From: Octopus sinensis
Taxonomy: Eukaryota
DNA: 64,000 bases
Direction: 5' to 3'
NCBI RefSeq assembly: GCF_006345805.1
Contig: NC_043000.1
Span: 98,580,001-98,644,000, forward strand
Shown piece after piece: positions 1 to 48,627 of this stretch (its first letter is position 1; every line of letters starts with the position of its first letter). The translations under genes and the position numbers were made by a program. The notes beneath the pieces are model-generated. The model was not told the DNA's origin. It saw only the letters and a program-made list of their open reading frames with translations, and searched no databases.

Positions 1-675
1 GTTTTACAGGAAAAAGAAAATGAGGTTTGCAGGTAAAAAGAAACCTTATATATAAAGCTAAGCACTTTATGCATGCGAAACCATTGATCAACTTAGAGGT
101 GCTTCTTTTCGGATATATGATTCACAGACGATATATATATATATATATATATTATATATATATATATATATATATATATATATAAACAAGTTAAATGCGA
201 TACAATAAAATTAATTATAATCGCCGGTGTACCAGTACACGCCATATATATACATATATAAATTACATTCAAGGCGAAGTGTGCACTAGATACACAAAAG
301 CTGGATAAATTTAGTGAGATGAAAATTAAAACTTTTACAAACTTAGCTTTTCTTATACTGCAGTTTCGCCAAATTCAGTAATAAAAATAATATTTATTAA
401 TAAAAATAATATTTAGTAATAAATATATATATATATATATATATATTCATAATTAATCAATATAGGGTGGCAGAAAAATTTTGTAGAATTTTTTTGCCAC
501 CAGCGGCCTAGTGGGAAAAAATTAAATAGTCATAGACCATTTTTAAGTTCAACATCACAATCAAGGAACGGCCATAATAGGCCATTCACCCACTAGAAAT
601 AACAGCCAAAAGTTTAACCGCAAAATAACATCAATTCCGTAAACCAGGAGAAAATTAAAAAACATTTACCCTGTA

Positions 676-782
676 ATTTCTTATACGATGCACCGTTTCA
701 TCTACTGTTTAATGGTAAACTAACCTGATTAAATTAAATCAAGCCGATCTACCATAGGCCTTAGATTCATCAGTAAGAAATA
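676..782 (-). ncRNA. Type I hammerhead ribozyme, family 1 copy 1
   Basis: Reverse complement reads atttctta-CTGATGA-atcta...tagat-GAAA-cggtgcatcg-TA-taagaaat. Confidence 0.85.
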
Positions 783-1160
783 GCCAAGTCGGAACAGATA
801 TTTTTCACGAGGCATTCCCGTCCCTGCCTCGGCAATATCTGACCTAAAATTTTCAAATCATCGCACTCGCGCCAAATTTATCGGCAGCAAATAAATATAA
901 GCCGCCGATTCCATTACGGAACTAACAGAAAATTCATAATTAATCAATATAGGGTGGCAGAAAAATTTTGTAGAATTTTTTTGCCACCAGCGGCCTAGTG
1001 GAAAAAATTAAATAGTCATAGACCATTTTTAAGTTCAATCACAATCAAGGAACGGCCATAATAGGCCATTCACCCACTAGAAATAACAGCCAAAAGCTTT
1101 AACCGCCAAAATAACATCAATTCCGTAACCAGGAGAAAATTAAAAAACATTTACCCTGTA

Positions 1161-1265
1161 ATTTCTTATACGATGCACCGTTTCATCTACTGTTTAATGG
1201 TAAATAACCTGATTAAATTAAATCAAGCCAATCTACCATGGCCCTTAGATTCATCAGTAAGAATA
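1161..1265 (-). ncRNA. Type I hammerhead ribozyme, family 1 copy 2
   Basis: Same motif in the second tandem unit. Confidence 0.82.
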
Positions 1266-1686
1266 GCCAAGTCGGAACAGATATTTTTCACGAGGCATTC
1301 CCGTCCCTGCCTCGGCAATATCTGACCTAAAATTTTCAAATCATCGCACTCGCGCCAAATTTATCGGCAGCAAATAAATATAAGCCGCCGATTCCATTAC
1401 GGAACTAACCAGAAAATTCATAATTAATCAATATAGGGTGGCAGAAAAATTTTGTAGAATTTTTGCCACCAGCGGCTAGTGGGAAAAAATTAAATAGTCA
1501 TAGACCATTTTTAAGTTCAACATCACCAATCAAGAACGGCCATAATAGGCCATTCACCACTAGAAATATTTATATTTATTGCTGCCGATAAATTTGGCGC
1601 GAGTGCGATGATTTGAAAATTTTAGGTCAGATATTGCCGAGGCAGGGACGGGAATGCCTCGTGAAAATATACTGTTCCGACTTGGC

Positions 1687-1793
1687 TATTTCTTACTGAT
1701 GAATCTAAGGGCCTATGGTAGATTGGCTTGATTAATTTAATCAGGTTAGTTTACCATTAACAGTAGATGAAACGGTGCATCGTATAAGAAATA
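1687..1793 (+). ncRNA. Type I hammerhead ribozyme, family 1 copy 3
   Basis: Stem I tatttctta(1687-95)/taagaaata(1785-93); CTGATGA 1696-1702; stem II atcta/tagat; GAAA 1769-72; stem III cggt-gc-atcg; GUA cleavage after 1784. Confidence 0.88.
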
Positions 1794-2170
1794 CAGGGTA
1801 AATGTTTTTTAATTTTCTCCTGGTTACGGAATTGATGTTATTTTGCGTGTTAAAGCTTTTGGCTGTTATTTCTAGTGGGTGAATGGCCTATTATGGCCGT
1901 TCCTTGATTGTGATGTTGAACTTAAAAATGGTCTATGACTATTTAATTTTCCCACTAGGCCGCTGGTGGCAAAAAATTCTACAAAATTTTTCTGCCACCC
2001 TATATTGATTAATTATGCATTTTCTGGTTAGTTCCGTAATGGAATCGGCGGCTTATATTTATTTGCTGCCGATAATTTCGCGCGATGTGCGATGATTTGA
2101 AAATTTTAGGTCAGATATTGCCGAGGCAGGGACGGGAATGCCTCGTGAAAAATATCTGTTCCGACTTGGC

Positions 2171-2276
2171 TATTTCGTACTGATGAATCTAAGGGCCTAT
2201 GGTAGATTGGCTTGATTTAATTTATCAGGTTAGTTACCATTAAACAGTAGATGAAACGGTGCATCGTATAAGAAAT
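2171..2276 (+). ncRNA. Type I hammerhead ribozyme, family 1 copy 4
   Basis: CTGATGA 2180-86, GAAA 2253-56, cggtgcatcg-TA-taagaaat. One stem I mismatch. Confidence 0.8.
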
Positions 2277-45630: not shown

Positions 45631-46233
45631 TGTTATCTATCTATCTATCTATCTATCTATCTAATATACATACATACATACATACACACACACATACATA
45701 CATACCTATATATATATACACATATATATATATATATACATATATATATATATATATATATATATATATATATATATATATATATATATATATATATATA
45801 TATATATATATAATATATAAGAAGTGGGGACCGAAATACTTCAAAGGAATGTCAAACATATAAGTCCGCTGGTATAGTCTAAGTAAAGAATATATATAAT
45901 ATATATATATTCAGTATTTTCATAAACAATAAATGAAGTATAAAGAAAGGAAAAATTGTAGGTGCAGACGATCATTAATTCATAATCTAGGTTGGCACAG
46001 AACCAATATACATTCTACAAATTGTTTCGAAGTCTAATTAATTCCAAAGGCAAACACGAAAACCTCACCTTGAAATGAAAATTAGATTCTCCGTCAAGAA
46101 TTACATACTGGTATGAATAATTACGATCAACAAAAATATACAAAGACCTTTCATAGCCCTGATGGGAACGTCAAAAAGAATATATATATATATATATATA
46201 TATATATATATATATATATATATATAATATATA

Positions 46234-46785
46234 TAGCAACGATTTGCCTCACCACACACCGAATTTAGAAATAGCAGTCAAAGAGTTATGGCTATTCTTT
46301 CTACTTAAAAGGTGATGTCTTCTTGAGGTGATGTCTTCTAGTGCCTCCAAATTTAATACACAATTATTAATAATTGAGACGCAATTATTTATAATTGAAG
46401 AGTCCTACGCTGAAGAGAAAAATAGTCGGGTAAGACATAATTATTTAATTTTTATGCTTTCCTATGACTTAATTTCGAAACGTACGTCCGTAGGTGACTT
46501 AATATAGAATGATTGTCGTCATTTCTTTCTCTTTTGCCTGCGTTGTTTGCCTTTTAAGTGCTGTGGTTTTACTGGGATCTCCCTTTTAAGTAGAAAGAAT
46601 AGCCATAACTCTTTGACTGCTATTTCTAAATTCGGTGTGTGTTAAGGCAAATCGTTGCTAAATCCTTATTTACTTAGTATTACTTAAACCTTCCTTGAAT
46701 GGGGCTTTTACATGCCGAAATCTACTTGGTGAAATTAATGATTATTCCAAATTAATTAATTTCACCCTATATTATTATTGATAAT
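46234..46785 (+). mobile_element. (TA)n-embedded Penelope-type non-autonomous element with an inverted arm
   Basis: 46234-46312 is the reverse complement of 46582-46660. It contains a hammerhead. Confidence 0.82.
46404..46494 (+). ncRNA. Type I hammerhead ribozyme, family 8
   Basis: cctacg-CTGAAGA-gaaa...tttc-GAAA-cgtacg-TC-cgtagg, a canonical GUC site. Confidence 0.9.
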
Positions 46786-46977
46786 TATATATATATATAT
46801 AATGTATATATACATATATATATTATATATATTATATATATATATATGTATATATATATAATATATATATATATATATATATATATATATATATATATAT
46901 ATATATATATATATATATATATATGCATATATATATATATTATATATATATATATATATATATTATATATACATATA

Positions 46978-47418
46978 TAGGCGCAGGAGTGGCTGTGTGG
47001 TAAGTAGCTTGTTAACCAACCACATGGTTCCGGGTTCAGTCCCACTGCGTGGCATCTTGGGCAAGTGTCTTCTGCTATAGCCCCGGGCCGACCAATGCCT
47101 TGTGAGTGGATTTGGTAGACGGAAACTGAAAGAAGCCTGTCGTATATATGTATATATATATATATATATATATATATATATATATATATATATATATATA
47201 TATATGTGTGTGTGTGTGTGTGTCTGTGTTTGTCCCCCTAGCATTGCTTGACAACCGATGCTGGTATGCTTACGTCCCAGTCACTTAGCGGTTCGGCAAA
47301 AGAGACCGATAGAATAAGTACTGGGCTTACAAAGAATAAGTCCTGGGGTCGATTTGCTCGACTAAAGGCGGTGCTCCAGCATGGCCGCAGCCAAATGACT
47401 GCAACATTTAAAAAAGAA
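46978..47418 (+). mobile_element. Intact SINE family B (tRNA-like head, internal (TA)n(TG)n, CR1-like tail)
   Basis: ggcgcaggagTGGCTGTGTGG (A box)...GGGTTCAGTCCC (B box)...ggcggtgctccagcatggccgcag. Confidence 0.88.
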
Positions 47419-48351
47419 GAGTAATATATTTGTATGTATGTATGTATGTATGTATATATATATCCATGAACATATATGATTATTTTTCTGCATGGTCATG
47501 ATTCATCTATAAGGACTAAAAGATAGTTAATTCAGTGGTATATTCAGGTCATAGTCAATATCTATAAATCTGAAATGCGAAAAGTTTGTTGGTCTGGTTT
47601 TGGCATTGGAACGGGTTAAAGGCCACTAGATCCCGTTGGATTGACTCCAAAATTTACAGGAATGTGTAAAATGAGGTGAGAATGTGGTTGGGCTAGGTTA
47701 GAAATCCCTATTTTAAAAGGTGTGGTTACTAGGGCAAAAAATACACACTTTGACAAGTCTTCTCTCATTATTTTATGTGTCTGTCTTCCTCCGTCTCTCT
47801 CTCCTTCTTCCCTTTCTTTCACTTTCTCTCTATAACGTCGTTTGACAGTGTCTACTGTCTTTCCCCCGCCAATTTCACTCTTTCTTCCACATCCTCTCTC
47901 TCTCTCTACGTCTATTTGCATTCATAGAGAGAATTATTATCCCCACCATCACCACACAATCATGAGAACAAATATTATGAATCAGATATTTATTGGGTTA
48001 ATTTATATATGTATGTGTGTACTATATATAAATATGTATATATAATGTATATATACAAAGTGTATATATCTGTATATATGTATATATATATATATATACA
48101 TATATATATATATATAATATATATCATAAAATATTAGGGAATAAATCCAAACTTACAGGGAAAAATCAGATTTAGGATTAAATCCAATTTTATAGTAAAA
48201 TATATTATATTATATTATAATAAATTAGAGATAAAACCACTATTAGGCAAATCAAACAATGAAAAACATAAGCCAATACATAAAATTAATTAATTTATAT
48301 TATTTTAAATATATATCAAAAGTATTAAAAGTTTAATAAGATAAAGAGTAA

Positions 48352-48422
48352 AACACTACGATCGTTTGATAGCTGTACAATTCGTAATAATTCGAGTTAT
48401 CATTACAGTCAATCTTCAGGTT
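48352..48422 (-). ncRNA. Degenerate hammerhead, family 9, in a TA-embedded element (~48125-48470)
   Basis: aac-CTGAAGA-ttgactgta...tacagctatc-(G missing)AAA-cgatcg-TA-gtgtt. Confidence 0.5.
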
Positions 48423-48627
48423 AATTGAAATATAATTTGTATACATTTGTATATATAATGCGTATATATATTTAATGCGTCTGTCTATCTATCTATCTAT
48501 CTATCTATCTATCTATCTATCTATCTATCTATCTATCTATCTATCTATCTATCTATCTATCTATCTATCTATCTATCTATCTCTCTCTCTCTATATATAT
48601 ATACATATATATATATATAATATATAT

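Follow-up and report, generated by a model that had tools for sequence, protein, structure and literature searches.

A 64,000-nucleotide stretch of the Octopus sinensis genome (contig NC_043000.1 of NCBI RefSeq assembly GCF_006345805.1, positions 98,580,001 to 98,644,000 of the forward strand; hereafter the window, numbered from its first letter, 36.6% GC) contains eleven or so real families of type I hammerhead ribozyme (HHR), eight of them named A to H and three, I, J, and K, present as decayed or truncated copies. Their insertions lie mostly in (TA)n tracts and have a common anatomy: in every (TA)n family tested the 3' ends fall at two fixed positions, and every two-armed insertion that we could classify pairs one long end with one short end. 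We describe the families and this anatomy, and weigh the reading that we hold to be probable, though some way from secure, in which these Penelope-like element (PLE) ends and retrozyme-like repeats would have been inserted by a Penelope-type reverse transcriptase (RT)-endonuclease (EN) that used the two cut DNA ends as cDNA primers, each at its own fixed site on a single RNA.

Hammerhead families of the window

Four families consist of AT-rich tandem units with one type I hammerhead per unit (488 bp in A, 480 bp in G, ~600 bp in H, and 405 bp in I). Family A forms two arms, a left arm of ~2.3 units on the minus strand (446-1568), whose long 3' end enters (TA)n at 446, and a right arm of ~1.7 units on the plus strand (1570-2395), whose short 3' end enters (TA)n at 2395; full hammerheads, located here and below by core position C3, lie at 773(-), 1257(-), 1696(+), and 2180(+). 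Family G occupies 42825-43643 on the minus strand as ~1.7 units between (TA)n tracts, with its long end at 42825 and hammerheads at 43133(-) and 43612(-), and family H forms a two-armed insertion at 46231-46785, with the short arm on the minus strand and the long arm, on the plus strand, bearing a full hammerhead at 46410(+) with a 60-nt stem II. The copy of family I (184-420, minus strand), flanked on either side by (TA)n, has lost its 5' part up to a point inside stem II and retains only the 3' half of the motif, with H17 at 356, and the full motif is present at locus L360. The long ends of A and H (446-465 and 46765-46785) have CACCCTATATT in common directly before (TA)n, which possibly reflects one protein partner for both. 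The units of A, G, H, and I gave zero PLE-like tblastn matches and the upstream open frames listed are short; with the anatomy by which non-LTR retrozymes are recognized, all four are, as far as sequence can indicate, non-coding tandem retrozyme-like repeats. Family A arrays contain up to 13 full units within one arm, and at loci L329-L330, L332, and L336 private variants recur at a period of ~5 (C22, minus arm) or 3 (L332, L336), a pattern that may reflect multimeric circles as templates, unequal crossover at a later stage, or effects of assembly.

Three further families lead to coding elements. Family E is represented by a near-full element at 34751-38092 (plus strand), in which RT and, at the C-terminus, a GIY-YIG domain lie in frames 35463-36338 and 36289-37740, frameshifted in this copy, and the pseudo-long terminal repeat (pLTR) bears a U3-A8 hammerhead at 37885(+) and a long end entering (TA)n. 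A two-armed, 5'-truncated copy lies at 25914-26967, its long arm on the minus strand (25914-26054) and its short arm, on the plus strand, carrying the GIY-YIG end and a hammerhead at 26797(+) that has lost 1 nt in stem I. The 150 scored genome matches to the RT all have 92-100% amino acid identity, several in frames of more than 800 amino acids. [quoted passage not shown] By the criteria of Craig et al. (PMC8557442), GxKF, DKG, and the linker therefore make it a Neptune- or Nematis-like RT-GIY-YIG PLE by predicted motifs.

Families C and F are Hydra-like PLEs. The window holds a two-armed family C insertion at 17986-18605, within the internal TA tract of a short interspersed element (SINE), with the short arm on the minus strand and the long arm on the plus strand; hammerheads lie at 18112(-) and 18335(+), the latter with a broken stem III palindrome. 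We rejected the idea that the family C core is dead, as its CCGAAGA (U4C) sequence folds as a hammerhead with a 56-nt stem II, and a relative at L265 retains CTGAAGA. In a full copy at L189, two pLTRs at a distance of 2.86 kb enclose an intact frame of 778 codons, which encodes RW (as RWL where the Hydra clade has RWK), DKT, and CxxC and CxH near the end of the EN domain; Pfam gave no match for this protein. We call family C Hydra-like and do not place it within the clade because the L189 protein lacks the CxCX5C linker and has RWL, and because its hammerhead is of the U4C, long-stem-II type. This intact frame (L189:1701-4037) belongs to a family that inserts in (TA)n without the linker, which counts against the published view of the linker as the driver of TA targeting. 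Family F, found downstream of a related open reading frame (ORF), has a two-armed pLTR insertion at 5558-5842 (long arm minus, short arm plus, hammerhead core lost) and a second copy at 27037-27204. The earlier note, made from the sequence of the window alone, had placed a hammerhead at 27141; the family is real, with full motifs at L233 and L193, but the window copy has the 3' half only, with H17 at 27135 on the plus strand, and a minus-strand motif was rejected. Just right of the window, L193:5617-9990 holds a Hydra-like family F element in inverted arrangement with a full hammerhead at 5758(-).

The remaining families are B, whose 110-bp solo end (6573-6682, plus strand) carries a minimal full hammerhead at 6594(+) with a GUU site and lies outside (TA)n, and D, an older pair of inverted arms (21620-22110, 76-90% identical to other copies) with a full hammerhead at 21905(+). 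Family B is common, with 11 near-full matches spread over 8 of 75 random stretches and no coding partner seen, and some of its 3' ends carry repeated AAATAATGT units (window 6573-6682; L187, L188). Four sites had been described as decayed. That near 347 is the truncated copy of I, a ninth family; those near 46012 and 48352 are decayed members of J (45820-46178, minus strand, core altered at C3 and A9, relatives intact) and of K (48125-48440, minus strand, GAAA lost), the relatives of K having the core and stems II and III with a weak stem I. At 42608, an old repeat family (42445-42735, plus strand) keeps CTGATGA, but its GAAA half was not found and a full hammerhead is unconfirmed.

These motifs exceed chance expectation. 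A strict type I descriptor that allowed stem II up to 110 nt gave 7 matches in the window against a mean of 0.05 and a maximum of 1 in 100 local dinucleotide shuffles, and a relaxed descriptor, composed after the matches were known, gave 8 against a mean of 0.08 and a maximum of 1 in 60 shuffles; the descriptor fails to catch several true window copies. Stem II inserts measure 67 nt in A, 21 in B, 56 in C, 39 in D, 9 in E, 55 in F (from L233), 28 in G, and 60 in H, and are thus long (39-67 nt) in five of the eight named families; descriptors limiting stem II to 45-60 nt recovered family G alone in the window. All eight named families, F again from L233, fold as type I hammerheads with an unpaired core, three stems, and an open stem I, and all eight have a self-complementary, palindromic stem III, as the earlier note had claimed. 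The stem covariation check that it proposed, run on D and H, found compensatory changes in four pairs of D (13 cells, 22 of 24 extracted copies aligned, equalled in 3 of 500 shuffles) and two pairs of H (8 cells, 23 of 32 extracted copies aligned, 0 of 500), counts that come from few pairs and a shuffle control inflated by kinship among copies. We found additional hammerhead families outside the window (L238:7502, L239:9695, L240:6227, and L246:9038), one with a 93-nt stem II.

No host gene or exon was identified in the window, where long frames are simple repeats or transposon pieces. Among the latter are a LINE-like C-terminus with C2H2 zinc fingers in two ~920-bp tandem copies (16030-17499, minus strand), Tc1/mariner-like fragments (23384-24850), and a broken non-LTR element with ORF1-like and RT-like frames (58400-62340). 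The best named homolog for the protein of one element comes from Argonauta, and the SINE-like repeats resemble those of octopus, both of which point to a likely octopod origin.

Two fixed ends and the pairing of arms

Measured in nucleotides past the ribozyme cut site, the two fixed 3' ends of each family, short and long, fall at 130 and 235 in A, 52 and 200 in C, ~141 and 185 in E, 135 and 261 in G, 190 and 291 in H, and ~65 and 215 in F, a spacing of 44-150 nt across the (TA)n families tested. Among 69 two-armed insertions, the inverted, tails-outward arrangement that the earlier note described was borne out, and all 55 that could be classified pair a long with a short arm, with no long-long and no short-short insertion. 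Family A alone, with the whole unit as query, gave 16 of 16 long-short pairs, and one-armed copies use either end (12 short and 9 long in G, 4 and 3 in A).

The two arms of an insertion resemble each other more than they resemble arms elsewhere. Substitution divergence within versus between insertions was 0.5 versus 1.5% in C, 0.4 versus 1.5% in E, 2.1 versus 6.0% in G, 0.6 versus 1.4% in A, and 1.6 versus 5.2% in H, or about one third as much within as between, and private variants extend through both arms of family A arrays. Of 58 insertions, 23 have a short arm that extends further upstream than the long arm, 34 show the reverse, and one is equal; among non-tandem C and E insertions the short arm reaches further in 5 of 14, in which neither arm could have been copied from the other because only the long arm holds the tail. 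Of 144 5' junctions, not one fell within 3 nt of the ribozyme cut (~2 would be expected if junctions were uniform), a result that led us to reject ribozyme cleavage as what sets the 5' ends. Since the cDNAs begin downstream of the cut site and cross it, their template RNA was either uncut or re-ligated.

This anatomy is consistent with twin priming on a single RNA, either uncut or circular, and it ties retrozymes to PLE enzymes. We envisage that a dimer of the PLE protein would cut both strands of a TA tract, after which the two DNA ends would prime on a single RNA, uncut or circularized, one of them using its long site and the other its short site. With no RNase H, the trailing RT would displace the leading cDNA strand; two 5'-truncated cDNAs would then be joined head to head, a single survivor would yield a one-armed copy, and circular or tandem templates would yield tandem arrays. 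The hammerhead would not set insertion ends and instead would likely trim tandem transcripts to monomers or circles through a dimeric stem III, and families A, G, H, and I would borrow the PLE protein in trans. In vitro work on a Poseidon PLE supplies several of the required activities: its protein, a predicted dimer, cuts and extends both strands, two RNA start sites bound the tail, and HHR cleavage is unnecessary (Frangieh et al. 2024, PMC11167929).

Several observations weigh against this scheme. An end remained unclassified in 14 of the 69 two-armed insertions (4 of these are H long ends in a shifted register), and most queries held the long end, so that only the partner arm was free to vary. 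Arm delimitation is clearly wrong at L036, one of the 58 cases of upstream reach, and one family F arm in the window begins exactly at the cut site (G5773). Arm likeness could be explained also by a single source locus or by gene conversion. Tails fold better than shuffles in four of seven families, and we rejected a folded tail as a general rule on that count. Frangieh et al. found that start sites did not differ between strands (PMC11167929), and a coding partner was looked for and not found for A, D, G, H, I, J, and K. Finally, arms begin at or near the same position in four of the ~10 family C insertions with junction coordinates (L269, L277, L278 = L140), as fold-back would leave them.

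Such cases raise the alternative that the inverted arm of these same elements arises by self-priming of a single cDNA that folds back and is copied to the short site, a process inferred from junction palindromes in rotifer Penelope (PMC3846280). Fold-back would account for the palindromic centres at L269, L277, and L278, for variants common to both arms, and for the greater reach of the long arm in 34 of 58 insertions, but not for the sequence that the short arm holds and the long arm lacks in 23 of 58, nor for the five of 14 C and E insertions with such a short arm, as the tail is in the long arm only. Fold-back fails as the sole mechanism and may apply to the palindromic-centre cases only; as a general account we judge it unlikely. 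Somewhat less likely still is a scheme with two RNAs, possibly joined through the palindromic stem III, each primed at a different site by one protomer of an asymmetric dimer. Stem III can self-pair in all eight named families, two templates would simply supply arms that span the same sequence, and two transcripts of one source locus would have variants in common; this scheme requires a built-in asymmetry to yield 55 mixed pairs of 55, however, and HHR mutants had no effect on insertion in vitro (PMC11167929).

A more radical objection, that the motifs are chance matches or dead relics in AT-rich repeats, we consider very improbable. Rfam reported zero hammerheads in the window at gathering score and none among the 150 of 244 matches listed at E<=10, the covariation comes from few pairs in related copies, only one of nine Xenopus retrozymes cleaved in vitro, and the core is intact in only 17 of 34 sampled copies of family D. 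Against this stand the maximum of one match in shuffles, the compensatory pairs in D and H, cores kept in 97 of 105 copies of A, 35 of 35 of E, 32 of 34 of G, and 32 of 36 of H (counts in which overlapping loci were left in), and the recurrence of one architecture across unrelated families.

The earlier note had called the families unrelated, and no inter-family blastn match at E<1e-3 appeared with 14 window queries; nevertheless, E, C, and F trace to PLE ORFs and the rest have the PLE insertion anatomy, which qualifies that description.

TA tracts, microsatellite extension, and abundance

The 3' end is followed by five or more TA units in 58 of 62 one-armed copies, and two-armed copies have such tracts at both ends in 47 of 55 cases, against a baseline of 22% of random 400-nt stretches that contain a tract of at least five units. 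(A shuffled control that counted half-motifs near TA is invalid because shuffling breaks up the tracts.) The claim that nearly all insertions sit in (TA)n accordingly stands for most families, but family B does so, by its anchor end, at 0 of 12 loci, and D only loosely.

Whether the elements also extend the microsatellites, as had been suggested, is in our estimate evenly balanced. Internal TA tracts in 102 empty SINE copies have medians of 5-11 units by age class, a maximum of 36, and a length-weighted mean of 16, while total TA at 11 filled SINE sites is 18-70 units (median 42), with seven sites above 36; this small sample was chosen from 29 interrupted SINEs by hammerhead-family ends, the remainder being nested SINEs or unidentified inserts. 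Of 30 long ends of family E, seven bear additional CTAT or TAAA units, as slippage at the RT start would leave. In contrast, the 23 one-armed copies with TA on both sides show no 3' excess (median 15 versus 14 units, p=0.81), and de novo TA tailing confined to the RT start is unsupported; 39 of the 62 one-armed copies lack 5' TA, many of them poorly delimited. A preference for rare long TA tracts could yield the same pattern at filled sites.

In three putative RNA runs, contigs span family A (26-29 of 29 bins) and family B and do not include the single-copy flanks at 5900-9000, which are covered in a DNA-like run, a weak hint that some copies are transcribed. The head-to-tail unit joint found in run contigs is shared by the DNA-like run and the genome.

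We estimated genome-wide density from 75 grid-chosen 10-kb stretches (750 kb of a 2.72-Gb assembly), in which the strict and relaxed descriptors gave 5 and 8 matches against 0-2 in shuffles. Extrapolation gives ~26,000 motifs (Poisson range ~10,000-55,000), and the window is ~12-fold denser than this sample by motif and ~8-fold by insertion; we rejected TA richness of the window, where TA density is average (5.8 versus 5.3 tracts per 10 kb). The presence of many ribozyme-bearing families, as read in the earlier note, is supported; they belong to a known class, and the window overstates their density in the genome. The estimate falls inside published animal ranges (~4,000 HHRs in coelacanth, 9,000 in Xenopus, 5,000 in mussel, and 126,247 in axolotl), and the abundance of the class is not new. 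Repeat annotation of Octopus vulgaris lists 31 recently active Penelope-like families in a main text that contains neither "hammerhead" nor "ribozyme" (PMC13282606).

Relation to known elements and significance

In L1 twin priming, an inversion results when the RNA primed by one target end is primed by the second as well, as we propose here; the second site in L1 is variable, however, and the copied segments do not overlap, whereas here the site does not vary and the two arms cover one and the same region. Among PLEs and retrozymes, published descriptions already cover HHRs and their palindromic helix III, copies in inverted orientation, a tail on one side, and (TA)n targets (PMC4209133, PMC8557442, PMC7229834, PMC3846280), as has the U3-A8 core of PLE HHRs (PMC4209133). 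EN+ PLEs with a pLTR HHR are alike in these traits and in RT with C-terminal GIY-YIG and 5' truncation (PMC4209133, PMC8557442), but differ in having tails of 30-40 nt, in contrast to 44-150 nt here, where stem II inserts reach 55-67 nt and the long-short pairing is counted and exceptionless among classified cases. Hydra-clade PLEs (PMC8557442) resemble family C in being smaller than 3 kb with one ORF, in the motifs RW and DKT, in CxxC and CxH close to the end of the EN, and in (TA)n targets, and differ from it in the linker, RWK, and hammerhead features noted above. The "half cores" 35-50 nt apart that the methods of Craig et al. mention for Naiad may equal a long stem II (PMC8557442).

Metazoan non-LTR retrozymes (PMC7229834; Li et al. 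2026, 10.64898/2026.07.22.740005) match A, G, H, and I as AT-rich non-coding tandems, whose units here measure 405-600 bp and each carry a single type I HHR; the PLE insertion signature of two fixed ends, inverted arms, and TA target is unreported in the accessible portions of both papers. The Poseidon element PAc (Frangieh et al. 2024, PMC11167929) likewise has two RT start sites downstream of the HHR, extension of both strands, and an unprocessed RNA template, but its start sites are AC-rich and non-homologous, whereas most ends here are TA-like, could pair with the target, and are coupled as two sites per insertion. Our literature search did not find octopod PLE hammerheads, PLE hammerheads with long stem II, strict long-short pairing, tails up to 150 nt, or the PLE signature on non-coding retrozymes, and the supplements of PMC8557442 (family lists, HHR_half_core) and PMC11167929 (Fig. 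S2) may bear on these points. The observation is real and its class known, and what it adds is a useful mechanistic regularity.

The text of Craig et al. leaves open how PLEs make tandem and inverted insertions and locate microsatellites (PMC8557442). A bolder synthesis, which we offer tentatively and doubt in its full extent, would join obligate twin priming of a single RNA at two fixed positions, trans-mobilization of circular retrozyme RNAs, and TA-tract lengthening, such that relatives of telomerase would seed and expand (TA)n in this genome; by the same proposal, long stem II inserts missed by standard searches may conceal ribozymes in PLE clades described as having none. That five unrelated families obey a strict long-short rule gives the in vitro system already in place a sharp prediction to test, and the PLE signature on non-coding retrozymes provides direct anatomical support for their mobilization by PLE enzymes, for which the earlier basis was co-occurrence and pLTR similarity. 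The young coding families E and C, together with matching non-coding RNAs, are natural reagents for such work.

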